From positions 10,206 to 74,205 of the forward strand of contig JAVEZQ010000008.1 of assembly GCA_034002905.1 (NCBI GenBank): 64,000 bases of DNA, given 5' to 3'. The position numbers and the translations under genes are program-made. Shown in pieces: positions 29,386 to 50,718 of this stretch. The DNA comes from Alphaproteobacteria bacterium (lineage in GTDB: Bacteria; Pseudomonadota; Alphaproteobacteria; UBA9219). The notes below the pieces were generated by a model that ran no database searches, had not been told where the DNA came from, and saw nothing but the letters and a program-made list of their open reading frames with translations. The first letter of the stretch is position 1; every line of letters starts with the position of its first letter.

Positions 29386-30393
29386 TTAAAAATACCCGTA
29401 TTCGCCAAACCACTGGACCGCATCGCGAAGGGCGTCTGTCGCCTCTCGCGGTGCATAACCGAGCGCCGTTTTGGCTTTGTCCGAAGAAAAGAACATTTTC
29501 TTTTTGGACATGCGAAGCCCGTCGACGGTCACGAACGGTTCTTTCTTGGTTAGGCGCGCTATAAACTCGGCTATATGTGCGATGGGAATAAGAGGGCCAT
29601 GCGAAAGCTTGAAGAGCGGAGGGTTGCGCCCTGTTAGTATGGCTATGATCTTGAGGATTTCAAGCAGCTCCATATTCTCGCCGCCCAGAATATAGCGTTC
29701 GCCGATTTTCCCTTTTTCAAGGGCGAGCCAGTGTCCCATCGCCACGTCATCGACATGAACAATGTTCAGGCCTGTTTCAACATAGGCGGGCATACGTCCT
29801 GCTGCTGCCTCGACGATAATGCGTCCGGTTGGCGTGGGTTTTAGATCGCGGGGGCCGATGGGTGTCGAAGGATTGACAATCACGGCGGGAAGGCCCTGTG
29901 TCGCCGCCATGGTCCTTACAACGTCCTCGGCCAGATATTTGGAGCGTTTGTAAACCCCGATCATATTGTCGATGGACACTGGCGTCGTTTCCGTGCCTGG
30001 CTTTCCATCGGGCGGGATACCAAGCGTCGCGACAGAGCTGGTATAGACAATTTTTTTGATGCCTGCTTTGACAGCCCCATTCATCAGGGCCTTGGTTCCT
30101 TCGACATTGATCTTGTTCATCGCTTGTTCGTCGGGAACCCAAATTCTGTAATCCGCCGCAACATGGAACAAATAATCGCATCCCTCAAGTTTCCCTATAT
30201 AGCTTTCGGGATCGGCGAGGTCGCCTTCGACAAGTTCGAAGTTTGTTTTGAGGCCGAGCAGATTTCGCCGGTCATTATTCTTTCGCGAAAGGAGGCGAAG
30301 TCGGTGCCCCTTGCTTTCCAATAGAGAGGCAACGGCTGCGCCAACAAACCCTGTTGCGCCTGTAACAAAGGTGAGGGGGGCGTTCTCGTTCAT
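29386..30393 (-). CDS. hpnA: Hopanoid-associated NAD-dependent sugar epimerase/dehydratase HpnA
   Basis: It has a Rossmann TGATGFVGAAV and YxxxK (YKRSK), and is the first gene of hpnABCDE. Confidence 0.8.
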   Translation of the reverse strand: MNENAPLTFVTGATGFVGAAVASLLESKGHRLRLLSRKNNDRRNLLGLKTNFELVEGDLADPESYIGKLEGCDYLFHVAADYRIWVPDEQAMNKINVEGTKALMNGAVKAGIKKIVYTSSVATLGIPPDGKPGTETTPVSIDNMIGVYKRSKYLAEDVVRTMAATQGLPAVIVNPSTPIGPRDLKPTPTGRIIVEAAAGRMPAYVETGLNIVHVDDVAMGHWLALEKGKIGERYILGGENMELLEILKIIAILTGRNPPLFKLSHGPLIPIAHIAEFIARLTKKEPFVTVDGLRMSKKKMFFSSDKAKTALGYAPREATDALRDAVQWFGEYGYF

Positions 30394-30947
30394 TAATTTA
30401 GGTTAAACGTGAAGGTTATACCCGAACAATTTGCTGGGATCGAAGAAACGCCTATTGCGCTGAGGTCATTAAAAGCTACGCCATCGACGATAGCCTCAAC
30501 AAGTCCTGGATCACGGCCCACACCAGTCGTTTTGGTCAGTATGGTTCCGCAGACGTCGGCTGGAAGGTTCGGGTCCAAAACGATCTGAAACTGTGTTGAA
30601 GTCGATATCAAAACGCGCACGGGCGTTCCGAAATCCGTTCTGGGTATCACCGAGGTAGGATCCTCAAACATTTCTCTTGGAAAAGATCCTGCGTTCACAA
30701 GCATTTGTGTAATATCGGTTCCGGGAGCGGAAGTAAAAGCGCTTCGACCACTGTAAAGTTTACGGATGTTTTGTGCGATGACAGCTATGTGTTGGATAGA
30801 GTTTTGCGTCGAAGCCTCTCGTCGGACAACGCTTGTTGCCGCCCAGATGCCGCTGAGAACGAGGCCTATAATGCCAAGGACAATGGCGGCTTCGATCAGC
30901 GTGAAGGCTTGACGTCGCAAAGGCATTGAAAGGGCAGGGGCTCTCAT
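30393..30947 (-). CDS. Type IV pilin-like / T2SS pseudopilin-like protein (prepilin-type N-terminal methylation domain)
   Basis: RRQAFTLIEAAIVLGIIGLVLSGIW is a class III (prepilin peptidase) signal with E at +5. It is about 180 aa. The stop overlaps the hpnA ATG as TAATG. Confidence 0.7.
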   Translation of the reverse strand: MRAPALSMPLRRQAFTLIEAAIVLGIIGLVLSGIWAATSVVRREASTQNSIQHIAVIAQNIRKLYSGRSAFTSAPGTDITQMLVNAGSFPREMFEDPTSVIPRTDFGTPVRVLISTSTQFQIVLDPNLPADVCGTILTKTTGVGRDPGLVEAIVDGVAFNDLSAIGVSSIPANCSGITFTFNLN

Positions 30948-31136
30948 GGGGTAGACTCTCCGTTTCTCTGTAGAGATGCTCGGACTTTATATCTTTTCTT
31001 TCCTTAAGACAAGTTAACGAATTATCAACCCAACTGACCGTTAATCAGGCTAGGGTTCTTCTTTGTCTTTTTACAGGGGCAAAGCGGAGCGAGGCGGTTA
31101 ACGCGTTGCCGCCATTGTTCTTATGGGGTGAGGTGT

Positions 31137-32870
31137 ATGCGATCAGGGGTTCTCCTATTTCTGTTGCCGCTTGTCTTGATGGCCGCTTGTTCGGATATCG
31201 ATGTCTCTAAGGCACGTTCGACTACGGGGCGCGCGCCTTCGGTTGCTGAGGTTCCTGATGCTGATGAAACTGTGCGTGGGCCAGATGATCCACCCATCGT
31301 CACACTGGACATTGGATCGCGGTTGAAAGAGCGTCCTTTAACGCGGTCAGAAACTTTGCCAGGGGGAATAATAGTCCCCAATACAAATTTGAAAGCTGTT
31401 CCGGTTACGGCTGCGTTACAGGCCGTGTTAGATGGAACCGATGTGTCCTTGTCATGGGATTCGAGCAATTTCGAAAGCCGACTGGTTACGGTTACAAATT
31501 TGAGTGGTTCGCTGCCCGTTGTTGTGCGGAAGATATGCACGTCGGCCAAAGTTTTCTGCAGTTACCGCAATGGCCTTTTAGAGCTTAAGGAGCGGGAAAC
31601 CTTTGTGATAGATTTGCCCTCCATCCCAACAAAGTCAGGTGCGGCGGGCGCAACGAACACTATGGCGGATACGATAAGCCTCTTGTCTGGAGATCAGGCC
31701 AAGATAGATAATCAGGGCGGGAACCTTCTTTATACGACGGATGTTGAAGGATATGAACATGTCCATGAATATCTGGATCAATTACGTCATGGACGCCCTC
31801 TCATTGTAATGCAGCTTTATATTTGGGAAGTGACGCTCAACAACGATCATGCAACGGGCATTAACTGGAAGAGCTTTAGTCTGGACGAGTTTGGTGGGCC
31901 CATGGAGAAATTGGCCATCAGTGGGTTGACCGGCTTTACGAGCCTGACAAGTCCGGGGGTCAGTCTTGGGGCGAAGCTTACGGGACGTGTTGATGCCGAT
32001 ACCGTTCTTCAATTTCTTGCAACGCAGGGGCAGGTGCAGACGGTTAGTAATCCACAGCTTACCTTTGTTTCCGGATCAAACGCGGAGTTTCGGGTTGGCG
32101 GTAAGCAACGTTATATCGCGCAGGTCGGCCAGCTTACCTCAAGCGTTTCGGGCACGTCGAGTTCGGGTGTCGGAACCAACACAGTTTCTACCGAAAGTAT
32201 TGATACCGGTCTAACGATCACAACAAGCGGCCTTTATGAGGGGGGAGTCATTTCCGCACTTCTTGAATTGACGACACAGGATGTTGTGAGCCTCAATCCA
32301 ACCACAATGGAAAGTGGTGTTACCGTTGACCTTCCCGAAACTTCGGAGCGCAAGGTCTCGACATCCATTCGTGTTCGGCCCGGAGACAATCTTGTTCTTG
32401 CGGGTCTTGTAACATCACGTGATGTGAATGACCGTGATGGGATTCCTCTTCCTTTTGGAGCTAGAGTTCCAACCTTTTCACGTGATCAACTCAAGAATAC
32501 AGAGCTTGTGGTTTTGGTTAAACCATCTGTTGTTGTTTTTGCCGAGAAAAAGATCGACCCTGAAGCGGAGAAACTCAAAGAACGCATGAAAGATGCGCTG
32601 AGCGAGCAAACGGCCGTTGTTATCGATAAGGACGGGACAAAGATGATGCAGATTCCTGCTGATCAGGGATTGCAGACACCGACTGTTCCTGCTCCCTATC
32701 GCGCTGAGTTGATGGTGCCATATGACGGTCGTGCGCAGCCGGTTCAGCCGATGCCTTTGACTCCTTCAGAAAACGGAACAGCAATTGATGGACGCATGAT
32801 GCAAGGAGGGTTTGGTCAGGCTTTTCGTGAATTGAGCGAGCCGGATGATGGTCAAGTGGTGAAACAGTGA
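31137..32870 (+). CDS. Secretin (GspD/PilQ family) with an N-terminal lipoprotein signal
   Basis: It has an LVLMAAC lipobox, an N0-like region, and a C-terminal secretin domain (NPQLTFVSGSNAEFRVG ... IRVRPGDNLVLAGLVTSRDVNDRDGIPLPFGARVPTFSRDQLKNTELVVLVKPSVV). A strong Shine-Dalgarno precedes the ATG at 31137; the ORF track starts at a GTG at 31128. Confidence 0.85.
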   Translation: MRSGVLLFLLPLVLMAACSDIDVSKARSTTGRAPSVAEVPDADETVRGPDDPPIVTLDIGSRLKERPLTRSETLPGGIIVPNTNLKAVPVTAALQAVLDGTDVSLSWDSSNFESRLVTVTNLSGSLPVVVRKICTSAKVFCSYRNGLLELKERETFVIDLPSIPTKSGAAGATNTMADTISLLSGDQAKIDNQGGNLLYTTDVEGYEHVHEYLDQLRHGRPLIVMQLYIWEVTLNNDHATGINWKSFSLDEFGGPMEKLAISGLTGFTSLTSPGVSLGAKLTGRVDADTVLQFLATQGQVQTVSNPQLTFVSGSNAEFRVGGKQRYIAQVGQLTSSVSGTSSSGVGTNTVSTESIDTGLTITTSGLYEGGVISALLELTTQDVVSLNPTTMESGVTVDLPETSERKVSTSIRVRPGDNLVLAGLVTSRDVNDRDGIPLPFGARVPTFSRDQLKNTELVVLVKPSVVVFAEKKIDPEAEKLKERMKDALSEQTAVVIDKDGTKMMQIPADQGLQTPTVPAPYRAELMVPYDGRAQPVQPMPLTPSENGTAIDGRMMQGGFGQAFRELSEPDDGQVVKQ

Positions 32871-34207
32871 TGAGAGATTTTATTCTGCGAGGTGGTTTTG
32901 TTGTTATCTGTCTGCTCTTTCTGCAGCAGCCAGTTTGGGCTGCACGTGACGCGGCGTTCGTCTCTCCATCGGCGGGTTCTGCAAGCGGAGCTTCTCCTGA
33001 CAGTCTTAAGGTTGAGCCCAAGAACGAGGTCGATGTTGGCGAAACGCCTGTCAATCTTGGCCGTCGTGCGACGTTCTTCTTTATAAACCAAACAGGGCAA
33101 GTCATTAATATCGAGAAAATTTCTGCAAATGGCGATAGCAATGTTAAAGCTGAAATCGTCGGAGATGATTGTTCGCGTACGAAAGCAATTTCCATTGCCA
33201 GTCGTTGTTCGGTGACAGTTGAGGCAACGCCAACCGGTTCAGGTTCATGGTCGGCCGAATTGCTTGTGACACACGATGCCCCCGACCGTATTGCCCGCGT
33301 GCGCATCATTGGAAAGACGGGAGGCAATCAAAAGGAAAGGCGTGACTTGGGGCTTTCTCTGAGCACAAAAGATATCAAGCCTATTGATTTCGGAGAAGTT
33401 GAAGTCGGGACAGATAAAGCTGTGCGCACGGCGCTTATGGTCAATGACAGTAACGAGAACATCAGTATTTTGTCGGTTGAAGTGATCGCGCCTGAAAACG
33501 GGCTAGAGCGGTTGGATCAAGGGTGCTTGCCGGATATGGATCTTAAAGTGGGTGAGTCTTGCCCCGTGACATTGATGTGGCAGCCCGAGGCTCGCGGCAT
33601 GATCTCGACTGACCTGATCATTCGTCATACGGGACAGCTTGGCTTTGCGGTTATTCCCATTCGCGGTAAGGCAAAGGAACCCGTGGCCGATCCTTCACTG
33701 GCAGGAACGGCATCGGGGGGGGCAGGAAAAGGAGCTCCTGTTAAGATGCCTGATCTGAATGCCCCGCCGACACTGGATGATATCCAGCGTGAGATGCAAG
33801 GGAATCTTAGCCCGCTCTCTATTGCTGGCGAGCAAGCAGAAATGGTCCAGCGACGAAAAACGAAACCAAGCGAGGACGCTAGCTTAGGATCCTATCAACT
33901 GATCGGAACTGTTGGTAACCGCGCTATCATCATAAAGCCGGATGGATCGACCGAAATTGTTTCGTTGGGGCAGGATATCCCTGAAGAAGGTGGAACTGTC
34001 AAGGTTCTCAACATAGCACCAAATGAAGCAACGATTATGCGAAAGGGTAAGAAACAGACACTCCGTTTACAACCTTCTAATTTAATGACCAACAGGGCTC
34101 TTCAGCAGCGGTCCGGGGATGCGCGTGAAAAGGATAGCCTTCAAACCAACCGAAAGCCTGCACATATGCAGGAAAAAAGTTCAGTTGATTTACCGGTGAA
34201 GAAGTAA
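32870..34207 (+). CDS. GspC/PilP-like periplasmic secretin-associated protein with two N-terminal Cys-pair beta-sandwich repeats
   Basis: It has an N-terminal hydrophobic signal. Two tandem repeats of about 110 aa each carry a C-x10-C pair (DDCSRTKAISIASRCSV and QGCLPDMDLKVGESCPV). The C-terminus YQLIGTVGNRAIIIKPDGSTEIVSLGQDIPEEGGTVKVLNIAPNEATIMRKGKKQTLRL matches the PilP/GspC HR-domain pattern. The start overlaps the secretin stop. Confidence 0.5.
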   Translation: MRDFILRGGFVVICLLFLQQPVWAARDAAFVSPSAGSASGASPDSLKVEPKNEVDVGETPVNLGRRATFFFINQTGQVINIEKISANGDSNVKAEIVGDDCSRTKAISIASRCSVTVEATPTGSGSWSAELLVTHDAPDRIARVRIIGKTGGNQKERRDLGLSLSTKDIKPIDFGEVEVGTDKAVRTALMVNDSNENISILSVEVIAPENGLERLDQGCLPDMDLKVGESCPVTLMWQPEARGMISTDLIIRHTGQLGFAVIPIRGKAKEPVADPSLAGTASGGAGKGAPVKMPDLNAPPTLDDIQREMQGNLSPLSIAGEQAEMVQRRKTKPSEDASLGSYQLIGTVGNRAIIIKPDGSTEIVSLGQDIPEEGGTVKVLNIAPNEATIMRKGKKQTLRLQPSNLMTNRALQQRSGDAREKDSLQTNRKPAHMQEKSSVDLPVKK

Positions 34208-35982
34208 TGGACGATTTTTTATCAAGTGATTCCGCTGAAGGGGATGCAGGGCAAGTTATTGCCATTCACGATGCGCATCTTGATAATGTCAAACCGCGTC
34301 ATTATGAGCTCGCGCTGGCCGAGCAGGCAATGCGTCGTACTACGGGGCGTTATCTTTCGATAGAGGAAATTCTCAGGCGCAATGGTTTCGTCGTAGAAGG
34401 CAGTAAGAGCATGCATGGCCGAAATGGCGTGCGTGAGGACCTTACGATGCAGTCCTTGCGTCTGTATGTTTCTGTGGCAACGCAGGCAGCCATGGGGCTT
34501 TGCTTGCTCGAACTCAAAGATGGTGTATTACGGATTGCTGTTGGAGATCGTGTTGACGATGCCGATCTTTTGCGCGTTTCGGCAAGCCTTGCACGTGCCC
34601 ACCATCAGGTCGACAAGATCGAGGTCGAGCCGTGGGACAAGACAGACTTTGCTCGGTTGATGCGCGAGCAGAGCGAAGTCGCGGGTGAAAGGCTTTTACG
34701 CGTTTTTTCGATGCTCAGCAAAGATCCTGATGATGCAATGCTGATTGAACAAGCGTTGCATGACGTTTTAGCTGAAGCCCTGCAAACGCGTACTTCGGAT
34801 ATTCATTTTTCACTGCAAGAAGATGACGCGCGTTGCTGGATACGGTACCGTATTGATGGCGACTTGGTTTATAAACATTTGATACCACATCGCGTTATGG
34901 CCCCCTTAGTCACGCGCATTAAAACTGACTCCAAAATGGACGCCGCCGATCGTCAGCATCCGCAGGACGGGCGTCTTGGGTTTGAATGGCAGGGGCGTGT
35001 GATCGACGTTCGTGTTGCAACCTTGCCTGTCGCTCCTTCTGGCGAAAAACTCACCCTCCGATTGCTTGATCGTGAAAATCTGCGCAGTTTTGACGAGTTG
35101 TTTATGCATGCGCCTGTTGTGGCGGAGAAGCTACGGCGGGCTGTTCATGGCCATACGAAAGATGGCGGCTTGATTGTTGTGAGCGGTCCAACCGGTTCTG
35201 GTAAGTCAACGACACTTTATGGCGTCATTCAGGAAATTGATCGTTCGGCAAGAGCGGTTTATTCGGTTGAAGCACCTGTTGAATATGATATGCCTCTGGT
35301 TGACCAGACTTCGGTTACCGATAATTCGGCGAACACGATTGCCGATATTATTCGTGCCCTGATGCGCCATGATCCAGATGTGATTATCGTCGGCGAAATG
35401 CGTGATGGCGACACAGTTGAGGCCGCATTGCGTGCGACTGAATCTGGACACTTGGTTATTACCACAGTTCACGCTGTTGACGCTATTCATACACTTGATC
35501 GTATGGACGGGTTCCTTAGCTCTGACTATCGTACAAGTGGTCTTTACATTTTGGGTCATGCCCTTGTGGCTTCTCTTTCGCAACGTCTGGTTAAAACCGT
35601 ATGTCCGGCTTGTCACCAGACCGAAGAAGCCCTTCGTGTATTTGGCTCGGCTGAGCGATGCAATGATATAGGCGTTTTGCCTGATGATAAGGTTGCCTTG
35701 GCCAACGGTCAGGGGTGTGACCTGTGTAATCGAACAGGATTTTTAGGGCGAACGTTGATTCTAGAAGCGCTTTTCCCTCCCGAGGATCAGGCCAGCCGGC
35801 GTGCAATTACCGAGATGCTTGTCTCGAACGTTTCATCTTCGATCGTCGATGTGCCGGGCACTTTTTTCTTGCCGCGTCGCGAGTCCATACGTGATTTGAT
35901 TCGTCGCAAAGCTGTTGATGCCAATATGGGCGCCTCTTTGATGGTAGAAGAGGCAACGGTTCGTCACAACCGTATGAGGTAG
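34207..35982 (+). CDS. gspE: Type II secretion / type IV pilus assembly ATPase (GspE/PilB family) with a C-terminal tetracysteine motif
   Basis: It has an N1-like domain, ASDIHF and QDGRLGF..RVATLP motifs, a GPTGSGKST Walker A, an Asp box, a VIIVGEMRD Walker B, a GHLVITTVHA His box and CPAC-x27-CDLC. Confidence 0.9.
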   Translation: MDDFLSSDSAEGDAGQVIAIHDAHLDNVKPRHYELALAEQAMRRTTGRYLSIEEILRRNGFVVEGSKSMHGRNGVREDLTMQSLRLYVSVATQAAMGLCLLELKDGVLRIAVGDRVDDADLLRVSASLARAHHQVDKIEVEPWDKTDFARLMREQSEVAGERLLRVFSMLSKDPDDAMLIEQALHDVLAEALQTRTSDIHFSLQEDDARCWIRYRIDGDLVYKHLIPHRVMAPLVTRIKTDSKMDAADRQHPQDGRLGFEWQGRVIDVRVATLPVAPSGEKLTLRLLDRENLRSFDELFMHAPVVAEKLRRAVHGHTKDGGLIVVSGPTGSGKSTTLYGVIQEIDRSARAVYSVEAPVEYDMPLVDQTSVTDNSANTIADIIRALMRHDPDVIIVGEMRDGDTVEAALRATESGHLVITTVHAVDAIHTLDRMDGFLSSDYRTSGLYILGHALVASLSQRLVKTVCPACHQTEEALRVFGSAERCNDIGVLPDDKVALANGQGCDLCNRTGFLGRTLILEALFPPEDQASRRAITEMLVSNVSSSIVDVPGTFFLPRRESIRDLIRRKAVDANMGASLMVEEATVRHNRMR

Positions 35983-35988
35983 GGAGAA

Positions 35989-37212
35989 ATGAAGCTATTT
36001 CATGCAAAATATGTCCAGCAAACAACAGGTGGCGGTTCCTTGGTTCAGGAGGAAGACTTTTATTTGCCTGACGAACGTGCAGTCCGCCATTTGCTGAGGA
36101 GCAAAGGGTATTGGCCCGTGGTCATTCAGGAACAAAAACCTCCCTTGTTTGAATGGATGGATGTTCGTTCGCGTGAATGGCAGATGCAACTTCTCAGAGC
36201 TATCCGTTTCCAGTCCGCGACCGCATCGGCTGGAACGGCGTTGATGAACATTATCGAGGGAGAAGATGACCCAAGGCGTCGTTTGGCCTTTCTTCCAACG
36301 CGAACAGTTTTGAAAGGTGGAGGGTCTTTTTCCGAGGCATTGCGCGAACTCAAGCTAATGGACGCGCCAACTATGGCCATCATCACCGCAGGAGAACGCG
36401 CTGGGGACCTCAAAGGTGTTATTCAGCATGCTATTGAGCATGTCGAGCAAAAAGGAAGCCAGTACAAGGCCGTTATTGCAGCATTGAGCTGGCTTTCTTT
36501 TGATATCATCTCGGTGGTGGGTACCATTTGGGGGAACCAATTTGGGTTTATTCCTTATTTGAAAGCGCAGGGGACAAAAAGCACAGAGCCTGGGGCTGCC
36601 GAAAAATTCGAAAATGCCGTTCAGATTGTCAGTGCAATCAATGGGACAATGCTGTTTGTCTCTTCGGTTATTATTCTGGCGGTTGTCTTTTTTGGCATAT
36701 CTTATTGGCGGAATAGACACAAACAGGACCACTTAACATCTCGGCTCATGATGAATATTCCGATGCTTTCAAGCTATTTTCAAAACATGAACATGAAGGA
36801 CACTTGCAAGCTGATGTCTCGACTTCTTCATGGTAAAGTGAATCTTTCGGATTCTTTAAAAATTATTATTGATAGCTCTGTCGAGCCGTCGACACGTTTT
36901 TATTGGTTGACTTGTCAGGCTAAAATCTTGGGCGGTATCGAGCCTGCGCGCGCTTTAGCTCAGTGGCCGTTGACAAAGGCTGAAAGAGATCAGATTGTCA
37001 CGATTCAAATGGTCGACCAACTTAGTGAGGTGTACGCGGCAATCGCAGAAGAACGTAATTTAATGGCCAAGACAGACCAAAGAAAAATCATCAAATTTGG
37101 CATGTTTATGCTTTTTGCTTTGTCTGGCATTACCGTTCTGACAACGATATACTTGCTCATGCTCCAGAATCAGAGTTTCCTCAATTCTATCAATGAAATG
37201 CGTGGTGGCTAA
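35989..37212 (+). CDS. gspF: Type II secretion system F-family inner-membrane platform protein (GspF/PilC-like)
   Basis: It is a 407-aa polytopic protein with the T2SSF signature GGGSFSEAL ... ITAGERAGDL and a second repeat. Confidence 0.8.
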   Translation: MKLFHAKYVQQTTGGGSLVQEEDFYLPDERAVRHLLRSKGYWPVVIQEQKPPLFEWMDVRSREWQMQLLRAIRFQSATASAGTALMNIIEGEDDPRRRLAFLPTRTVLKGGGSFSEALRELKLMDAPTMAIITAGERAGDLKGVIQHAIEHVEQKGSQYKAVIAALSWLSFDIISVVGTIWGNQFGFIPYLKAQGTKSTEPGAAEKFENAVQIVSAINGTMLFVSSVIILAVVFFGISYWRNRHKQDHLTSRLMMNIPMLSSYFQNMNMKDTCKLMSRLLHGKVNLSDSLKIIIDSSVEPSTRFYWLTCQAKILGGIEPARALAQWPLTKAERDQIVTIQMVDQLSEVYAAIAEERNLMAKTDQRKIIKFGMFMLFALSGITVLTTIYLLMLQNQSFLNSINEMRGG

Positions 37213-37213
37213 T

Positions 37214-38302
37214 ATGCTCAAAGCGCTGGTGGACGCCGTCAAGGCCTATTGGAACAGCCTCGGAACCAAGGTTGACCCTCTTGCTGCAGAATTGGGGTTG
37301 CTTAGTGTCGAGAGACCTCAACTGGACAGAAACAAGAATTCTGTTGCAATGATGCAGTCACTTGTCGGAGGCATGGTTGGGGTTGCCGATTACTATTTCC
37401 CAGCTGATATTCTGGGAGGGTGTTGTCCCCGTATTCAAGGTGAAGAACAAAACATCGTTTGGAATGCAGCCGCCGAGGCTTTGGATACAGAGCGCGTTCA
37501 CTTGGTATGGCAGGCCAAGAAGGACAAAATATATTATTTGGCGGTGTCATCTGAAAGCATCCGTTCGCATCCCAACACCTGGTGTCCGTTTTGTTCCCTT
37601 TTGCCCGGAATGGATGATGCGGCCATCCCGCCAACTATATACACTCATTATAGCGAAGAAGTGGCCACAATGATGGCTATCACATCAGATTCGCTTACGA
37701 TTCATCGTGGTACTTCGTCGGTTATCCGGGCGAAAGCGGAGCGGCTTGCACGAGAAAATAATAATGCGCCCCTTATTGACATGGTTCCCGACCTGATTCA
37801 ATCGTTGCAGCCGGTTCCATGGTATTCCGTTTCGCTGTTTGAGGATCGTGCGCGGCGAATTTTGTCGACCCTTATGGTCTCCTCTGCGATAATTTTTACA
37901 ACCATAGCCCTTTTTGTTTGGTTTGTTGCAGCGGTCTCTACGTTGAATGCCAAGGTCGATCTCGAAGAAATACGAGAACGCAGCAATGTAAAGACGATCG
38001 AATTGATGAAAAAGGTGCAGGAGCATCGTGCGAGCCCTATGCGAAAGCAAATAGCGAGTTTTGCAGATCTCAATGATGGCCTTCTCGCCCTGAACGGATA
38101 TTTAGAGATGTATCAGATTGTAAAAGGAAGGGTTCTCTGGCGTGCAATTGTTCCAGGTAACGTTACCGCTGAACGCATCAAAGAGCTCGGTGGGCAGACT
38201 CTTGGTAACGCAGATATGGGTGTTATAATCGGAAATTCTCCCGATGCTTTGGGATCGGATCGTTCTGGCGATTCTAAGGGTCGTGGTGGTAGGAGGAGGT
38301 AA
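37214..38302 (+). CDS. GspL-like bitopic protein (cytoplasmic domain, one TM, periplasmic domain)
   Basis: A cytoplasmic part of about 215 aa is followed by a single TM (ILSTLMVSSAIIFTTIALFVWFVAAV) and a periplasmic part of about 130 aa. It sits right after gspE/gspF. The assignment rests on topology, size and synteny only. Confidence 0.4.
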   Translation: MLKALVDAVKAYWNSLGTKVDPLAAELGLLSVERPQLDRNKNSVAMMQSLVGGMVGVADYYFPADILGGCCPRIQGEEQNIVWNAAAEALDTERVHLVWQAKKDKIYYLAVSSESIRSHPNTWCPFCSLLPGMDDAAIPPTIYTHYSEEVATMMAITSDSLTIHRGTSSVIRAKAERLARENNNAPLIDMVPDLIQSLQPVPWYSVSLFEDRARRILSTLMVSSAIIFTTIALFVWFVAAVSTLNAKVDLEEIRERSNVKTIELMKKVQEHRASPMRKQIASFADLNDGLLALNGYLEMYQIVKGRVLWRAIVPGNVTAERIKELGGQTLGNADMGVIIGNSPDALGSDRSGDSKGRGGRRR

Positions 38303-38304
38303 AA

Positions 38305-38826
38305 ATGTCACTGGATTTTTCTTCCTTACCCAAGATTCTCAGCCCGGCAATTCTAACAAGGGCCGTTCGTTCTTTTGACAAGACAGTAACCCTTTTTGTA
38401 TCTGTTGGTTGGGGGGCGGTCATTGTTGTTTGGATTCTTGCGATTTATACTATTCATTTGTCGGTAACAGCTCGTTCTCAGTTAGCTGAAGCTTCTGCAA
38501 AGGAACCAAGCCTGCCCATCATAGAGAAGACATCTGTGCCTGCCCGACAAATCGAAAAAGTTATGGAGAGGCTTAAGAAAAAGTTTCCTGACGTTACCGT
38601 CAGCGCCGCGCGTGATTCGTCAGTCAATATTATCGGGACTGAGGGATCGCGGTTTAAAAGCTGGATGTACGCCTTGAGTTATATTGAGATTATATCTCCT
38701 GAATATTACTGGGAAATCAAGGAGATGTGCGTTGGCGCCCATTGTGGGGCTAATTCGTTGATGAAGGTTGTCTTGACTCCTCAGAAAATCATTTTCAAGG
38801 CACCGGAAGTTTCCTCTGACCCCTAA
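38305..38826 (+). CDS. GspM/PilO-like small bitopic protein
   Basis: It is 173 aa with a short cytoplasmic N-terminus, a TM (VTLFVSVGWGAVIVVWILAIYTI) and a periplasmic domain. The assignment rests on topology and synteny only. Confidence 0.35.
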   Translation: MSLDFSSLPKILSPAILTRAVRSFDKTVTLFVSVGWGAVIVVWILAIYTIHLSVTARSQLAEASAKEPSLPIIEKTSVPARQIEKVMERLKKKFPDVTVSAARDSSVNIIGTEGSRFKSWMYALSYIEIISPEYYWEIKEMCVGAHCGANSLMKVVLTPQKIIFKAPEVSSDP

Positions 38827-39024
38827 GACATTCTGCCCTTTCTCAGAGGAATCTTATTGACATTAGGGACGGATATCTTACCTTCGGCAGGATATTTAGG
38901 TAATACGGTGCTTGATTCGTGTTTTGTGGTGGCCTATTGGTAATGATTAGTTAAGAATCGTCTTGTAGCTTTTCTACAGTTTATGTGTAGTCATAGCTCA
39001 AGGCTTGACAGCTAGGGGACGAAG

Positions 39025-39684
39025 ATGAGGCGATTGGACGAGAGTCTGTATGAGAACAAGTTGCCAAGCGATGCTGGTATTGCCATTGGACCAATTCTGT
39101 TCATCATCGCGGTTTTGGGTATTCTAGCGGCAGCTATCGCGGCGGGAAGTGGTTCCTTTACGACCAATACTCACGGTGAAAATACCAGAACAAGAGCAAC
39201 GGCCATGATTGATATTGGCCAGAACTTGAAAATTGGTATGGACCGTGTTGTCGGTCTAGGCACTGACATTGTGGATGTCGTTATCGATCCGACGGTGACG
39301 TCCGGCGACGATGCGATCTTTTCGCCGATAGGTGGTGGTATTTCGGCTCCTTCGGTAACAATGGCGGCGGATGCGTCATCTGATACGTGGCACTATCCGA
39401 CGATTGCTGTCCCAGGAATAGGTACGGCATCAGGAAGTCGTGTTGCTGTTCTCCGTGTAACCGATGTTGTTTGCGATGAAATTAACTCCAAGGTCAATGC
39501 CATGGCTGCTGGCACGGCCAGTGGTGCTGCAGTGGATATTGGTGATTTTACGTCAACAGCTGTGAATGACGGTGCGGCATGGCCCAGTGATTTTGACGGA
39601 AAGCCAGTTGGATGTGTCTATAACAGCAATTCCACCTCGATCGCTGCGGGTTTCTATTTCTATCAGGTTTTGGCGGTCGAATAA
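39025..39684 (+). CDS. Pilin-like structural protein with a non-canonical leader (candidate major (pseudo)pilin of the cluster)
   Basis: A charged N-region (MRRLDESLYENKLPSDAG) is followed by an uninterrupted 23-aa hydrophobic segment (IAIGPILFIIAVLGILAAAIAAG) with no Glu at +5. The body is Gly/Ala/Ser/Thr-rich with two Cys about 50 aa apart near the C-terminus. It is followed by the strongest terminator in the window. Confidence 0.45.
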   Translation: MRRLDESLYENKLPSDAGIAIGPILFIIAVLGILAAAIAAGSGSFTTNTHGENTRTRATAMIDIGQNLKIGMDRVVGLGTDIVDVVIDPTVTSGDDAIFSPIGGGISAPSVTMAADASSDTWHYPTIAVPGIGTASGSRVAVLRVTDVVCDEINSKVNAMAAGTASGAAVDIGDFTSTAVNDGAAWPSDFDGKPVGCVYNSNSTSIAAGFYFYQVLAVE

Positions 39685-39704
39685 TGTGACGCTTGAGTGA
39701 ACCA

Positions 39705-39740
39705 AAAACGCCCCCGTCGAAGGGGGCGTTTTTATTTTTA
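39705..39740 (+). terminator. Strong rho-independent terminator after the pilin-like gene
   Basis: ACGCCCCCGTCGAAGGGGGCGT followed by TTTTATTTTTAT. Confidence 0.8.
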
Positions 39741-39844
39741 TGCTCACAATTTAATGGACATTTTAGACTAACCCTATGGAATAGCTAATCCTTCGTGTAA
39801 GTCATATCGCGTTCGTCTATGATTATTAACCAAACGCACGAAAC

Positions 39845-39880
39845 TAATTAAAAACTCTTTAACTGATTGGGATATAATAG
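39845..39880 (+). promoter_or_regulatory. Candidate sigma70-type promoter for the giant-protein operon
   Basis: A perfect TATAAT hexamer lies at about 39873-39878 in an AT-rich tract, about 90 nt upstream of the ATG at 39969. The -35 element is unclear. Confidence 0.3.
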
Positions 39881-39968
39881 TTAAATGGTGCGGGGTTTAT
39901 CTAATTAGCGGTAAGTTATCGGATCCCATGGCAAGGCTTTACGGCAATAGACAGTAAGCAGGTGTTGA

Positions 39969-42641
39969 ATGCTCTCATCCAAAAAAGAGAATGACCAAAG
40001 GGACGATCAGAATAAAGCGCCGTCGATTTGGGGGCTTCTTTTTAATCCGCAGTTTGGAAAAGACATTGCGCCACTTAGAGATAGCTTCTTTATGTTTGCT
40101 CGTATCATCGCCTCTTTGTTTGCGATGGTTGGATTGTTCCCGCGTGATCATGCCGCGTTTGTAAGCAATGAAGTGAGGCTTTCCTTACGCGAGGTTATGG
40201 GTACAGCCTATGCCAATTTGCGTTTTACAAGGGAGGGTTTGCCCCAGATCCTTTACTTTGCTGCCGTGGTTGGCTGTTTGGCCTTCTCTCTTCTTTTCGT
40301 TTTGACGCTGCTCTTTTCCTTTTTGATCCCTGAGGCACATGCCCAAATCTTTCAGGCGCCAGGAACTCAGAACGGCACAAATTGCGATTTGGCCCAGCTT
40401 TGGCTTGGGTACCTTTTTTTGGGGCATGATATAAATGCTGCTCAAGGGTGCGGTTATGTTGCTGCGGGATCGAGCGTAGCGGCAACGCTTGCTCCAAACG
40501 GTAATGCCATCCAAATTGCGGTTGGCGATGCTTTGCGTTTTTTCAGTAACGGCGTGTTGGTTCTTGCGGGCATCATCCTGCTTTATCATCTTGTGGTCAT
40601 GGTGATCGACACAGCGCACACAGCGCGGTTTATGGGGCGAGCCAATCAGGTCTGGGCGCCGCTACGCCTTATTTTTGCTATTGGTTTGTTGGTGCCAATT
40701 GCTGTTTCGGGTAGTGGTGTGACAGGCCTCAATACGGGACAATATATTGCCATCCAGATGGCGCGTTGGGGCTCTGGCTTTGCGAGTAACGCGTGGGTGC
40801 GACTATTAGATGGGTATTCCCAGCATATCAATGCGCAAAGTATTCGTATGCCTCCCCCTCCGTTTACGGACGATTTTGTCCGACAGGCGCTACTTTTTAA
40901 TGCCTGCCGCCGTGTTTATAACCAATATGTGACAAGTCAGGAGCTTCCAGAGGACTATATTGTCAGGATCGATGTCACGAACCCAACTAATACACAGCGG
41001 GGCGAAATAAATTTTGTCAGCGATAACGGCAATGTTCGTTGTGGCACGATAACATATGCCAACCCGACAGCAGATGGTCGTGTCGGGGACTTATCGAACC
41101 TGAATGCGAGTGTTCGTAACGCTGTTTGGACTGTGATCAGAAATTTTGTGGAAGACTCAAATACGCTGTTTTACAGAACATCTGGTTCTGCCATGCTTTA
41201 CATGGATGACGGATATACTGAAAGTGCACAGGGGCAGTATGAAACTGACAACGAAGTCATCGTTCAAAATGTAAATCAACTTCTCACTGATTTTTCCAAT
41301 GATGTTCAAGACGCGATAGCCAGAGCTTTAGATGTCACAAGCGTAAGTGGGGTAAAAAGTCTTCAGAGCATCATGCAGACGGTATCAACTCAATGGGGCA
41401 ATCAGGGCTGGGTGATGGCTGGTGCGTGGTACAACACCATTGCCAATGCGCAGACGCGACTGTTCCAAATTGTCAACGGCTCGTTTGATACAATGTTTTC
41501 GTCGGCTAAGCTTGAATATAGCGCGTGGTCAGATGAGACAAGCCGAGAAAGTGGCTATCGAAGCATCGATGAAGATGTCACGCGCATCGTCGGCAATTAT
41601 GGTTCTTTGATACAACAGGCTAATCCACGCACGCCTCAACAACTTGCTGCTTTGGGAATGGACCCTCTGACTGATGCCTCGTTTAACGGGTTAATGGGTG
41701 CCTTTTTAAACGCTGTTGATTATATGGCCGTCAAAATGAATGTCTGGGAAGCAGGTAATCAACTTGGCTTCGAGTTCGGTAATGACGTGAACCCCATGTC
41801 CGAGCTTGTGTCATTTGGTGCGAAACTTTTAACACTTGGTCTTGATCTTCTCAGTTATGCCATCGGCGGGTCTGCGTTGGCCTCTGTCGGTGGCGCAGCC
41901 CTTGCGGGCGTCTCGATGAGTGTGTTTAATCCTGCTGCTGGCGCTATGGGAGCTATGGCGGCCCTTATGCTAGGCGATGTTATCAGGTCCTTGGCGGGGT
42001 TGGGGATCACCCTTGGGGCTCTCTTGATCGGTGCGGGGATCATGTTGGCCTATGCTTTGCCTTTGATGCCGTTTATCCGCTTTTTCTTCCACGTCATTAC
42101 ATGGCTTCTTACCGTTTTTGAATCGGTGGTCGCCATGCCCATTCTGGCGCTTGCGCATGTAACACCATATGGTGAAGGACTGCCGGGACAGATGGCACAA
42201 CGAGGCTATTTTATGATCCTGAGCATTTTCCTGCGGCCGATCTTGACTGTGATCGGTTTAATCGCTGGGTTCTTGCTGTTTTTTGTTGCGATCTATTTCC
42301 TGAATATTTCTTTCTCGGTTGCAATTAACGGCATTGGTGCTTTCCCAAGTGGCTTTGATGTTTTGTCCAAGATCATCTTCTCGATTATCTATGTCGTTTT
42401 GGCATACATATGCGCCAACAATTGCTTCAAGACGATCGGTTACTTTGCCGAGCAGGCGATGAACTGGATGAATGCTGCCGCAGCCTTGGGTGTTGGTATG
42501 GGCGATAGAGGCATGATGAGTACAGCGCTCGGTGCCACGACAACGTTCATGGGGAAGAATATGGGCAATACCTTGAAGGGGGCCGGAGATTCTGTGGCCG
42601 GTCGCGCACAGTCATTTATTGGCACACCGGGTAAGAAGTAA
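39969..42641 (+). CDS. Large polytopic membrane protein of unknown function (paralogue A, 890 aa)
   Basis: Four N-terminal TM segments include an internal signal-peptidase-like FLIPEAHAQ motif. A periplasmic domain of about 370 aa contains PPPP and NxxVRCGxIT motifs. Six or more C-terminal TM helices follow. A good Shine-Dalgarno is present. It is about 45% identical to the next gene. Confidence 0.85.
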   Translation: MLSSKKENDQRDDQNKAPSIWGLLFNPQFGKDIAPLRDSFFMFARIIASLFAMVGLFPRDHAAFVSNEVRLSLREVMGTAYANLRFTREGLPQILYFAAVVGCLAFSLLFVLTLLFSFLIPEAHAQIFQAPGTQNGTNCDLAQLWLGYLFLGHDINAAQGCGYVAAGSSVAATLAPNGNAIQIAVGDALRFFSNGVLVLAGIILLYHLVVMVIDTAHTARFMGRANQVWAPLRLIFAIGLLVPIAVSGSGVTGLNTGQYIAIQMARWGSGFASNAWVRLLDGYSQHINAQSIRMPPPPFTDDFVRQALLFNACRRVYNQYVTSQELPEDYIVRIDVTNPTNTQRGEINFVSDNGNVRCGTITYANPTADGRVGDLSNLNASVRNAVWTVIRNFVEDSNTLFYRTSGSAMLYMDDGYTESAQGQYETDNEVIVQNVNQLLTDFSNDVQDAIARALDVTSVSGVKSLQSIMQTVSTQWGNQGWVMAGAWYNTIANAQTRLFQIVNGSFDTMFSSAKLEYSAWSDETSRESGYRSIDEDVTRIVGNYGSLIQQANPRTPQQLAALGMDPLTDASFNGLMGAFLNAVDYMAVKMNVWEAGNQLGFEFGNDVNPMSELVSFGAKLLTLGLDLLSYAIGGSALASVGGAALAGVSMSVFNPAAGAMGAMAALMLGDVIRSLAGLGITLGALLIGAGIMLAYALPLMPFIRFFFHVITWLLTVFESVVAMPILALAHVTPYGEGLPGQMAQRGYFMILSIFLRPILTVIGLIAGFLLFFVAIYFLNISFSVAINGIGAFPSGFDVLSKIIFSIIYVVLAYICANNCFKTIGYFAEQAMNWMNAAAALGVGMGDRGMMSTALGATTTFMGKNMGNTLKGAGDSVAGRAQSFIGTPGKK

Positions 42642-42675: not shown

Positions 42676-45345
42676 TTGGGCATGATGGCAATAGCATATG
42701 GTCAGGCTTTAAAGACATTCGGTCGTTGGCTATTGTCGCCCGGCTATGCAACGGAGTTTGGCGCTATCCGGCGCGCTTTGCGCTCTTTTGCGCACATGCT
42801 TGCAAGTTTGTTTGCCACTGCGGATCTGTTTCCATCAACCCACTGCGCCTTTTACAATGAAAACGAACCTTTATCATTACGAGATGTGCTTCGGACGGCT
42901 TATTCGAATCTTGAGTGGTCATGGGTGGCTTTCCCAAAGATCCTCTATTTTGTTTCAGTTGTCGGAACCCTGATCCTTTCTTCTCTTTACGTTGTAACGC
43001 TAGGTTTGTCCTTTTTGATACCTGAGGCGCAAGCCCAGATGTTTGATCCCCCTGATCCGGGGTGCGATTTTGCGCATATTTGGATCAACTATTTATTCCT
43101 TGGTGATACAGGGGCCCAGTCGCCGAGTTGTACAGATGGCGGCATTATGTATCCCAACGGAAACAACATGCAGATTGCGATGGCTGATACACTCCATCTG
43201 TACAGTTTGGGTATCCTTGTCTTCGCCGGATTTACGCTCTTATATCATTTGCTCTCGATGGTAGCCCATACCGCCAACACAGGAACGCCAATGGGTCAAC
43301 AAGCTAATCAGTTCTGGGCGCCTGTCCGTCTTGTTGTTGCCATTGGTCTTTTGGTTCCTGTTACAGCCTATCAAGATATACAGGGACTTAATACGGGACA
43401 GTATATTGCTATTCGTTTGGCGCGCATGGGTTCCGCGTTGGGAAGTAACGCGTGGGAAATCGTTATGAGCCGTTTTTCAGATCATATGACCGAACTCGGC
43501 ATGCATGTTCCGCCGCCGCCCAATATTGATACCTTGGTCCGACAGGTCCTTCTCGATGAAGCCTGTATGGCCCTTTATAACCAGATGATCAGCCGGCCTG
43601 AGACAAAGATTGACCAGAATGAATATAGAGTTCAGCGTCTTATCCTTGATAGTGCCGGCGAGAATATGGGTGCAGAAGACGCCGTTGCCGTCGCCTATGT
43701 AAGTGAGAACAACAAGGTCCGGTGCGGTTCTATTACATTGCCACGCGAACCACTGGTCAATGGTCAACCCGCCGGAGGATATCAAACCGCTGTGTGGCAG
43801 GCGGCCCGTGCAGCCTTCTTTACTTTTCTGAATTCACCCGAGCTAGAGCAAATTGCACGGGCTTCTCTTTCGAACCTGCGCCCAACTTATCGTGGAGTGA
43901 ATGAAACATATATTGAACCTCAAGAGGTGTACACTCGCGCAACAAACTTGATCACCGCAACGCGCAATGATTACCAGCAGCGAATTGCTGCGGCGTTGGG
44001 GGCCGCGAATCTGAATAATAGCCAAGTTGTTATTGACGTTAACGAAATTTCGGAAAACTGGGTTCAGGAGGGTTGGGTCATGGCGGGTGCGTGGTTCAAT
44101 ACCATCGCGCGCGCTCAGGCGGCCATATTTAACTCCCTTTTGTCCAGCGTGACTTATGCCTATCATCCTATGCTCATTGAAGAGGCGTCCTTCGTCGACA
44201 GATTTACGGGTAATTCAAGTTCGCGTGATGTAGGCGATGAAGTCAAACGAGCGGTTGCCTTGTTTAAATCCGTTGTTGATAAAGCTGGAACAGACCCCAC
44301 TCCTGCTCTTGCTGCTTCCCAAATGAGCCCAGTGACGTCTGCTCAGCCTAACAAGGCTGTCCAGTCCTTCTTGACCTTTGTTTATGACCTGGGTGTTCAG
44401 TATGGTCTTTGGACAGGAACGGGCCTTGTCTATAATTTTGGAAACACAATGAATCCAATGATGGAAGTCGCTGCGATTGGGCAAAGGCAGGTGGCCATGG
44501 CTTCCGATCTTCTAGCTGTTGGTATGATAGGCTCACAAGTGGGGGGGCCCATTTCAGGAATAACATTGAGCGAAGTTGATGCCAGATCTTTTGGCAAAGG
44601 CTCATCATGGATGCAGTCTTTGCAGGACCGAGCGATCACTATTGGTATGTCAACCATGGCCCCTGAACTTGTTCGAACCGTATCAACCTTTGTTGTGGCT
44701 GTTGGCGGCGTCCTGTTCACATCGGGATTGTTTTTGGCTTATTTGTTGCCATTGATGCCGTTTTTCCGGTTTTTCTTCCATGTTTTGACATGGATTCTCC
44801 TTTTGTTTGAATCAATCGTTTCAATGCCGCTGTTGGCCCTTGCTCATGTCAATCCATATGGGGATGGACTGCCGGGCCAAATGGCGACGCGTGGCTATTA
44901 TATGTTGCTTAGCATCGTGCTGAAGCCGATCTTAATGGTCATCGGGTTGCTTGCCGGGTTCTTGATTTTCTTTATTGCGATCAACTTCCTCAATCTTGCC
45001 TATGGTATAGCGGTCGGATCCCTCTTTCATCAGGCCTCGTCGATGGCTATCATCTCGAATATCATTTTTTCGGTCATCTATACGGTTATTGCTGTGATTT
45101 GCGCGAATAACAGTTTTAAGACGATTGGCTACTTCTCTGAGAATATCATGTCGTGGATTGGGGCCGCATCGGCTGGTGGACGTCAGTCTAACCTTGGAGA
45201 TCCGGGCACGATGCATCAACGGTTTATGCAGGCGGGGGGCTTTATTTCGGGTGCCATGATGGGCGGAGCCATGACATCGACAGCCGAAGTCAAGCAACGC
45301 GTGGCCCAGATGCAGCAAAATCAAATCAAGGGCGGGAACAAATAG
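42676..45345 (+). CDS. Large polytopic membrane protein of unknown function (paralogue B, 889 aa)
   Basis: The architecture and conserved blocks match paralogue A (FLIPEAQAQ, PPPP, NNKVRCGSIT, EGWVMAGAWFNTIA, LPLMPFFRFFFHVLTW...LALAHVNPYGDGLPGQMA). Confidence 0.85.
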   Translation: MGMMAIAYGQALKTFGRWLLSPGYATEFGAIRRALRSFAHMLASLFATADLFPSTHCAFYNENEPLSLRDVLRTAYSNLEWSWVAFPKILYFVSVVGTLILSSLYVVTLGLSFLIPEAQAQMFDPPDPGCDFAHIWINYLFLGDTGAQSPSCTDGGIMYPNGNNMQIAMADTLHLYSLGILVFAGFTLLYHLLSMVAHTANTGTPMGQQANQFWAPVRLVVAIGLLVPVTAYQDIQGLNTGQYIAIRLARMGSALGSNAWEIVMSRFSDHMTELGMHVPPPPNIDTLVRQVLLDEACMALYNQMISRPETKIDQNEYRVQRLILDSAGENMGAEDAVAVAYVSENNKVRCGSITLPREPLVNGQPAGGYQTAVWQAARAAFFTFLNSPELEQIARASLSNLRPTYRGVNETYIEPQEVYTRATNLITATRNDYQQRIAAALGAANLNNSQVVIDVNEISENWVQEGWVMAGAWFNTIARAQAAIFNSLLSSVTYAYHPMLIEEASFVDRFTGNSSSRDVGDEVKRAVALFKSVVDKAGTDPTPALAASQMSPVTSAQPNKAVQSFLTFVYDLGVQYGLWTGTGLVYNFGNTMNPMMEVAAIGQRQVAMASDLLAVGMIGSQVGGPISGITLSEVDARSFGKGSSWMQSLQDRAITIGMSTMAPELVRTVSTFVVAVGGVLFTSGLFLAYLLPLMPFFRFFFHVLTWILLLFESIVSMPLLALAHVNPYGDGLPGQMATRGYYMLLSIVLKPILMVIGLLAGFLIFFIAINFLNLAYGIAVGSLFHQASSMAIISNIIFSVIYTVIAVICANNSFKTIGYFSENIMSWIGAASAGGRQSNLGDPGTMHQRFMQAGGFISGAMMGGAMTSTAEVKQRVAQMQQNQIKGGNK

Positions 45346-50617: not shown

Positions 50618-50718
50618 AATCTTTCCTTGAAGAGCTCGGTTGTTAACCATAAGATGTCTTGCGAATCGCGCCATTCGTTGCCCATTCCTTAGCCTTCCTT
50701 TGCCTTGACGGGGTTTTT

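Follow-up and report, generated by a model that had tools for sequence, protein, structure and literature searches.

A Probable Type IV Filament Machine of an Unnamed Lineage Encoded by a Seven-Gene Operon in an Alphaproteobacterium

In bacterial type IV filaments, the glutamate at position 5 of the subunit (Glu5) is thought to be important for assembly, the T2SS subunit GspK, which lacks it, being a tip subunit, and contacts between the assembly ATPase and a bitopic inner-membrane protein are established for the GspE–GspL and BfpD–BfpC pairs. Several described systems share parts with the locus considered here, which lies in a stretch of 64,000 nucleotides from an Alphaproteobacteria bacterium (contig JAVEZQ010000008.1 of assembly GCA_034002905.1; the whole stretch is called the window). 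The type IVb pili (T4bP; Bfp, R64/Salmonella/Burkholderia pil, Tcp, Cof) appear to resemble it in their lipoprotein secretin and in the BfpC/PilO2 fold predicted for a bitopic protein, and they resemble it in a pilin leader of about 18 residues and in a pilin fold to which the predicted one is nearest (CofA and TcpA); a PilS-type prepilin gene, moreover, adjoins the locus in the window. The type II secretion system (T2SS; Gsp/Eps/Etp) resembles it in the GspE-like ATPase with a tetracysteine motif, the GspF-like platform protein, and the PulL C-terminal and GspL cytoplasmic folds. The MSH pilus provides, with MshL, the best curated model for the secretin, and there too the secretin gene stands ahead of those for the ATPase and the platform. 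The locus itself, at positions 31137–39684 of the plus strand, is an operon of seven genes encoding, in this order, a secretin, an immunoglobulin (Ig)-domain protein, an ATPase, a platform protein, a bitopic protein, a small bitopic protein and a pilin-like protein. We consider it probable that this chromosomal, vertically inherited operon specifies an envelope-spanning type IV filament machine of an unnamed lineage, which profile scores and gene order set apart from the named types.

The ATPase, the platform protein and the secretin are homologous to type IV filament components (Table 1), while every system-specific curated model of the T2SS, the type IVa pili (T4aP), the T4bP, the MSH pilus and the Tad pili scores far below its cut-off. 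The ATPase scores highest with GspE (266 bits; TIGR02533, cut-off 630), followed by PilB (239 bits, cut-off 676), ComGA (187 bits), PilT (148 bits) and, far lower, the TadA-type model (47 bits, cut-off 373). Against PDB sequences the order is EpsE (211 bits), PilB (188 bits), PilT (100 bits) and BfpD (86 bits), and among plasmid proteins the ATPase is 37% identical to EtpE and about 29% identical to the R64-type PilQ (107 bits); a T2SSE_N/MshEN domain was not matched in it by Pfam at E ≤ 0.1. The secretin, whose lipobox LMAA/C (a slash marks the cleavage site here and below) is read from the ATG at 31137, matches MshL best and over the whole model (106 bits; TIGR02519, cut-off 250), ahead of GspD (62 bits; TIGR02517, cut-off 351), the T4bP PilN (53 bits; TIGR02520, cut-off 288) and PilQ (19 bits, cut-off 284), and its best PDB sequence match is BfpB (30.7 bits). 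For the platform protein, ComGB and GspF give 50 and 34 bits, respectively (GspF: TIGR02120, cut-off 424). The generic marks of the type IV filament superfamily are all present, namely an ATPase, a platform protein and a subunit with a hydrophobic helix behind a class III-like leader, which is predicted to be cleaved. The components of the operon are mosaic: resemblance to the type IVb systems is seen in the secretin, the bitopic protein and the pilin fold, the ATPase is GspE/PilB-like, and by curated model the secretin is also MshL-like. An earlier note, made from the letters of the window, had read a GspE-type ATPase with a tetracysteine motif from this region and had placed the cluster in a divergent or minimal member of the superfamily rather than in a textbook T2SS, T4aP or Tad system. 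All of the open reading frames that it claimed are present, and the scores support both the ATPase and the placement. The note had also allowed that the proteins might fall within a known, well-populated clade with the same gene order; the related proteins number in the hundreds in metagenome-assembled genomes (MAGs), yet their clade is unnamed and uncharacterised.

The differences from each named type are distinct. Compared with the T4bP, the operon ATPase is much closer to GspE/PilB (about 210 bits for GspE) than to BfpD or PilQ; the order secretin-X-ATPase-platform-bitopic-bitopic-pilin differs from N-O-P-Q-R-S of R64, as it does from R64 pilL–V as a whole; and the operon is devoid of a peptidase, a transglycosylase and a minor pilin, its conserved pilin departing from the G/xxxxE pattern by the lack of Glu5. 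Compared with the T2SS, the GspG–K pseudopilins and GspO are missing from the operon, the secretin is a lipoprotein with no recognisable GspD N-terminal region, GspL, GspM and GspC are not recognisable by sequence in the operon, and the gene order is unlike gspC–O, in line with the departure from gspC–M that had been noted earlier. No equivalents of MshI, J, K, M and N were found by sequence and no MshA-type pilins occur in the operon, which separates it from the MSH pilus. As to the T4aP, there are no PilM/N/O/P matches, PilT is absent from the window, and the leader, at about 18 residues, is not short. The Tad/Flp systems differ in that the operon has a tetracysteine motif in its ATPase, a single platform gene and a subunit of 219 residues.

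Table 1. Positions of the filament operon and of its adjoining features in the window
Feature	Position	Strand	Evidence
Canonical type IVb (PilS-type) prepilin, 184 residues	30393–30947	-	Pfam domains PilS (24 bits) and N_methyl (23.3 bits), each above cut-off
Intergenic region of the divergent prepilin/hopanoid and filament operons	30948–31136	.	Sequence read
Outer-membrane lipoprotein secretin	31137–32870	+	PF00263 58.5 bits; signal MRSGVLLFLLPLVLMAA/C
Periplasmic Ig protein, 446 residues	32870–34207	+	Signal peptide, two ASH/PapD-like Ig domains, C-terminal beta domain
Assembly ATPase, GspE/PilB type	34207–35982	+	T2SSE 288.7 bits; tetracysteine motif CPAC...CDLC
Polytopic inner-membrane platform, divergent GspF/PilC family	35989–37212	+	T2SSF 51.4 bits, two stretches
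Bitopic assembly protein, 362 residues	37214–38302	+	Cytoplasmic BfpC/PilO2/GspL-like domain, transmembrane helix and coiled coil, periplasmic ferredoxin-like domain (predicted)
Small bitopic protein, 173 residues	38305–38826	+	N-terminus inside, one transmembrane helix, periplasmic domain of about 120 residues, two invariant Cys
Spacer ahead of the pilin gene	38827–39024	+	Conserved TTGAC(T/A)TT box and GGTAAnnnTTnnTTAAC block (14-locus alignment)
Non-canonical type IV pilin-like subunit, 219 residues	39025–39684	+	18-residue leader, then G/IAIGPILF; invariant Cys C150 and C197
Intrinsic terminator closing the operon	39704–39733	+	12 bp stem with 7 G-C pairs, T-run
DotA/TraY-family polytopic membrane protein, paralog 1	39969–42641	+	TIGR04346 309.8 bits (cut-off 100)
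DotA/TraY-family protein, paralog 2	42676–45345	+	TIGR04346 294 bits (cut-off 100)

The seven genes form one operon, as indicated by their overlaps and tight spacing and by the terminator that follows the pilin-like gene. The plus-strand open reading frames 31128/31137–32870, 32867/32870–34207, 34207–35982, 35989–37212, 37193/37214–38302 and 38305–38826 overlap or are separated by gaps of at most 6 nucleotides, the likelier start codons being those at 31137 for the secretin, 32870 for the Ig protein and 37214 for the bitopic protein; only the pilin-like gene is set off, by a spacer of 198 nucleotides. In order, the gene lengths are 1743, 1341, 1776, 1224, 1110, 522 and 660 nucleotides. A ribosome-binding site, GGGGTGAGG, stands ahead of the secretin ATG, and the terminator, which begins 20 bases past the pilin-like stop, is the strongest terminator-like hairpin of the region. 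In the same spacer of the related loci L003–L034, the TTGAC(T/A)TT box lies about 30 nucleotides past the stop of the gene for the 173-residue protein, and the GGTAAnnnTTnnTTAAC block (GGTAA...TTAAC) about 80–100 nucleotides ahead of the pilin start. It is probable, as judged from this conserved sequence, that the box and the block constitute a separate promoter or regulator site for the pilin gene; no sigma-54 promoter was found upstream of that gene.

The 362-residue bitopic protein belongs to a family of 217 database members, none of which is named and none of which is in Pfam, and its family profile retrieves only 194 clusters among 1.84 billion representatives. In modelled structure, the cytoplasmic domain appears closest to BfpC/PilO2, nearer than to GspL, with the PulL C-terminal and GspL cytoplasmic folds also detectable. 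For four of the seven proteins, no relative is found in Pfam, in NCBIfam or among PDB sequences, even with profiles built from 25–29 orthologs, and hhalign comparisons of the family profiles with the R64-type PilO2, PilP, EtpL, EtpM and EtpC gave nothing significant; the same holds for the small bitopic family against the large one. The small bitopic protein is kept in 27 loci, where its topology and gene position suggest the role of a GspM/PilO-like partner. An ASH domain is found in all 29 members of the Ig-protein family, and the member in the window also matches the choice-of-anchor D model (43 bits). For the earlier label of a GspC/PilP-like protein, the profiles give one faint T2SSC match (E = 0.0077), confined to this single member of the family; the protein is presumably a secretin-associated or connector protein.

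These relationships bear on the possibility that the operon encodes a streamlined T2SS, in keeping with the annotation in Micavibrio aeruginosavorus; the 219-residue protein would then build a short pseudopilus in the periplasm, and this would drive hydrolytic enzymes through the secretin onto prey. The ranking of GspE, EpsE and EtpE among the ATPase matches is what such a system would give, and the GspL-like protein, the protein at the GspM position, the faint GspC HR-like match and the lack of a retraction ATPase in the operon point in the same direction. We nevertheless regard it as unlikely, because all T2SS equivalog models fall far below cut-off and GspG–K are absent from the window, because the lipoprotein secretin is nearer to MshL/BfpB than to GspD and the bitopic protein nearer to BfpC/PilO2 than to GspL, and because hhalign found nothing against EtpL, EtpM and EtpC.

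The assignment to a filament machine of an unnamed lineage is further supported by the distribution of the operon. Database relatives of the ATPase at 74–86% identity number more than 120, and all of them come from MAGs labelled Alphaproteobacteria, Rhodospirillaceae or 'Bdellovibrionales'; the last is the order under which NCBI files Micavibrio, and one of the loci is labelled Micavibrio sp. Related loci come from 35 species-level MAGs, and the seven-gene order is identical, with no exception, in all of the at least 19 that are sufficiently long, which shows that the arrangement is not due to chance. Hopanoid genes are commonly found upstream across the loci. A recent, horizontally acquired island was considered and is ruled out by this synteny in many MAGs and by the GC content of the operon (0.46–0.51), which is the same as that of its flanks. 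The flanks consist of housekeeping genes, those upstream being for ATP synthase F0, pyruvate kinase, phospholipid synthesis, AccA and hopanoid synthesis (hpn), and those downstream for dUTPase, CoaBC, MreCD, PBP2, BamB, Der, EpmA and PurF; two transfer RNA genes are also present in the window.

Some further observations concern the surroundings of the related loci. A 4.9 kb contig (RZZX01000148.1) that is 100% identical to window positions 35659–40500 is found in a MAG labelled Bacteroidia bacterium, a label that is probably due to a binning error. In eight loci (L010, L014, L016, L017, L018, L021, L028 and L033), a response regulator with an EAL domain and a hybrid histidine kinase with 7TMR-DISM and PAS domains stand downstream of the pilin gene in convergent orientation, and a response regulator also occurs beside two of the clusters described below, those of Micavibrio aeruginosavorus ARL-13 and of the Rhodoferax plasmid. 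The hybrid kinase of the window (47861–50617) was considered as a member of this conserved two-component system and rejected, as it is not orthologous. Between that kinase and mreC, at 50659–52746 of the plus strand, lies a gene for a CDC48/FtsH-like double AAA+ ATPase of 695 residues (TIGR01243, 298 bits, below cut-off).

The same gene order is also present on plasmids of Rhodoferax ferrireducens T118 (NC_007901, RFER_RS22335–22285) and Methylibium petroleiphilum PM1 (RPME01, MPE_RS21510–21550), where genes for a secretin, a short periplasmic protein, an ATPase, a platform protein, a bitopic protein of about 310 residues and one of about 155 residues are followed by pilin-like genes. Six of the seven components are homologous to those of the window. 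The plasmid ATPase shows 34% identity along its entire length, and the family hidden Markov models give, for Rhodoferax and Methylibium, respectively, 294 and 193 bits with the secretin, 173 and 165 with the platform protein, 54 and 52 with the bitopic protein, 24 and 42 with the small bitopic protein, and 44 and 12 with the pilin-like protein. As in the window, the plasmid secretins carry a lipobox and the pilin-like proteins are devoid of Glu5; their N-termini, KQAG/FMNALIMFGIAL and QGG/FINGMLMIGIAL, present a classical G/F peptidase site. The plasmid clusters differ in being betaproteobacterial and plasmid-borne, in an unrelated shorter protein (about 220–234 residues) that replaces the Ig protein, in having several pilin-like copies with the G/F site, and in extra minor-pilin-like genes. 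The Rhodoferax cluster (L071, 1–19255) additionally contains two tandem secretin-family genes, a peptidyl-prolyl isomerase gene between the bitopic and pilin-like genes, and a gene for a hypothetical protein of 1049 residues at its end, and it adjoins a PRTRC system.

A cluster of similar layout has been described in the predator Micavibrio aeruginosavorus ARL-13 by Wang et al. (2011, PMC3189940). Its genes are annotated as a secretin (GMV_1937, 1785 nucleotides), a hypothetical protein (GMV_1936, 1632), a type II/IV ATPase (GMV_1935, 1842) and four more hypothetical proteins (GMV_1934, 1221; GMV_1933, 996; GMV_1932, 531; GMV_1931, 738), so that the order and lengths of the genes resemble those of the window. 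It is likely on these grounds that GMV_1931–1937 represent the same system. GMV_1931, which corresponds in position to the pilin-like gene, shows the highest expression of the cluster, which increases from a value of 9.9 during attack to one of 53.8 during the attachment phase (PMC3189940, supplementary file 4). A response regulator gene and, two genes away, a gene of 507 nucleotides for a 'type IV leader peptidase' accompany the ARL-13 cluster (PMC3189940); neither this short A24 peptidase gene nor the response regulator gene is alongside the operon in the window. In the same work a 'functional type II secretion system' was attributed to ARL-13, with GspC, G, H and K missing from it, and the strain was described as having neither a type III nor a type IV secretion system (PMC3189940).

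The most distinctive component of the operon is the 219-residue protein. Its gene is present in every locus, with a tandem duplicate in two of them (L022 and L023), and its family comprises 409 database members, none named and none in Pfam. The N-terminus is invariant in 40 of 40 and in 25 of 25 aligned homologs: a charged leader of 16–20 residues leads up to Ala-Gly, after which the chain continues as IAIGPILFIIAxLGILAAAIAAGSGSF, with Pro rather than Glu at position +5. It had been noted earlier that the major pilin candidate lacks the G/FTLIE leader; this is confirmed, the invariant G/IAIGPILF standing in its place. The predicted fold appears closest to the type IVb pilins CofA and TcpA. A scan of every open reading frame of the window yields two class III-like N-termini only, that of this protein and that of the divergent PilS-type prepilin; the scan and further searches bear out that the window contains neither minor pseudopilins nor a prepilin peptidase, as the earlier note had stated. 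In one MAG (L034, 15672–17778, plus strand), the pilin gene has immediately behind it two genes for PilT-like ATPases of 352 and 343 residues (T2SSE, 100 and 106 bits), a possible sign that the filament of this MAG is retractile.

The divergent gene had been described as a canonical prepilin-type pseudopilin. The first half of this description stands, as its leader MRAPALSMPLRRQA/FTLIE retains Glu5, and the second does not, since the protein is a PilS-type type IVb prepilin with Ala instead of Gly at position –1 (RRQA/FTLIE). The GspG and GspH models give 13–17 bits, and do so with this gene only. The stop codon of the PilS-type gene and the start of hpnA share 1 nucleotide (29386–30947, minus strand), so that the pilin gene heads a hopanoid operon of hpnA, a GT2/hpnB gene, two SQS_PSY genes and an amine oxidase gene; the same arrangement is seen in L003, L004 and L024.

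The presence of this gene suggests an alternative in which the operon makes a type IVb pilus with the PilS-type prepilin as the true major subunit and the 219-residue protein as a minor, tip or priming pilin. Such a division of labour would agree with the PilS domain and Glu5 of the divergent gene, with the lipoprotein secretin, the BfpC/PilO2-like protein and the T4b-like pilin fold, and with the tip position of other pilins that lack Glu5, GspK for one. The PilS-type gene, however, adjoins the cluster only in the window and in L003, L004, L006 and L024, that is, in 5 of the roughly 24 loci that extend upstream, whereas the gene for the 219-residue protein is never absent, is duplicated in tandem and has its own conserved upstream box. 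The distance of the ATPase from BfpD and the R64-type PilQ, together with the score of the T4bP PilN model, only 53 bits against a cut-off of 288, also disfavors this alternative, which we consider quite improbable. The PilS-type prepilin is rather an accessory gene of a subclade.

Directly downstream of the operon, the window contains two DotA/TraY genes that the earlier note had missed. Both matches span the full length of the model, the paralogs are 40% identical to each other, and the pair is a transcription unit separate from the filament operon, behind the terminator. Among the 64 kb window genes, no other Dot/Icm components (DotB, C, D, G, H, L, O, IcmX) were found; in the Legionella Dot/Icm system, DotA and IcmX form the central channel (PMC12501162). 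We have also considered that the operon and the two DotA/TraY proteins might cooperate in one hybrid apparatus, in which, for instance, the pilus machine is coupled to a DotA-like channel. In the window and in six loci (L003, L005, L011, L026, L038 and L043), the pilin gene is indeed followed by a DotA/TraY gene within 1.5 kb, and in L039 a prepilin gene is directly upstream of DotA. Set against this, a strong terminator lies between the two units, DotA is missing near the operon in most of the loci that extend downstream, and 30 of 33 metagenomic DotA homologs (29–43% identity) are solitary among housekeeping genes; the plasmid relatives lack DotA as well, and the adjacency may reflect inherited synteny in one subclade. 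A hybrid of this kind therefore seems very remote. More distant DotA homologs (22–27% identity) are found near DotB-like ATPases.

Returning to the filament machine of an unnamed lineage, the following mechanism is proposed. The pilin-like protein would be inserted into the inner membrane and lose its leader of about 18 residues, cut after the conserved Ala-Gly by an A24 prepilin peptidase whose gene would be located elsewhere in the genome. Through its cytoplasmic domain, the BfpC/PilO2/GspL-like bitopic protein, together with its putative small partner, would hold the hexameric zinc-motif ATPase at the membrane, in the manner of GspE–GspL and BfpD–BfpC. The ATPase could then turn the GspF/PilC-like platform and so allow the subunits to polymerise via their hydrophobic N-terminal helices, and the filament would exit through the lipoprotein secretin, to which the two-Ig-domain protein probably binds. 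The product may be either a long pilus or a short pseudopilus, and its role is likely to be attachment to, or secretion at, the surface of prey in Micavibrio-like epibiotic predators.

Several observations weigh against this assignment. With Pro in place of Glu5, the 219-residue protein could be a tip or accessory subunit, as GspK is. Minor pilins are neither found in the window by the N-terminus scan of every open reading frame nor conserved among the loci, and an A24 prepilin peptidase was found neither in the window nor in about 70 related loci. The small bitopic protein has no detectable relatives (no family or PDB match), and neither has the Ig protein (no PDB sequence match in a profile search). 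The link to ARL-13, finally, is drawn from gene lengths, order and annotation only.

A more far-reaching interpretation, which is possible but which we put forward tentatively, is that the operon represents a new family-level branch in which a Glu5-less, Pro5 pilin builds the filament, that surveys such as TXSScan have missed it, and that in Micavibrio-like epibiotic predators it forms an organelle for prey attachment or feeding, with the DotA/TraY proteins maybe as an associated channel. In the survey of Denise et al. (2019), a recognisable major pilin is needed even for the 'generic' class, and few further families were expected (PMC6668835). Because the only conserved pilin of the present cluster escapes the pilin profiles, the cluster would be missed or left unclassified by such a survey.

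The operon thus appears as a seven-gene machine that extends across an order-level clade of uncultured predator relatives and to betaproteobacterial plasmids, and that lies outside all named types of a well-surveyed superfamily. As an exception to the Glu5 rule of bacterial type IV pilins, its subunit would provide a natural variant for testing the role of Glu5 in assembly. The solitary DotA/TraY homologs, which occur in a clade reported to have no type IV secretion system, raise the question of what the Dot/Icm 'gatekeeper' does outside a type IVB system. For Micavibrio, the operon is a concrete candidate for the apparatus of prey attachment or feeding, and ARL-13 offers a culturable relative in which the putative orthologs, GMV_1931–1937, are up-regulated on attachment.

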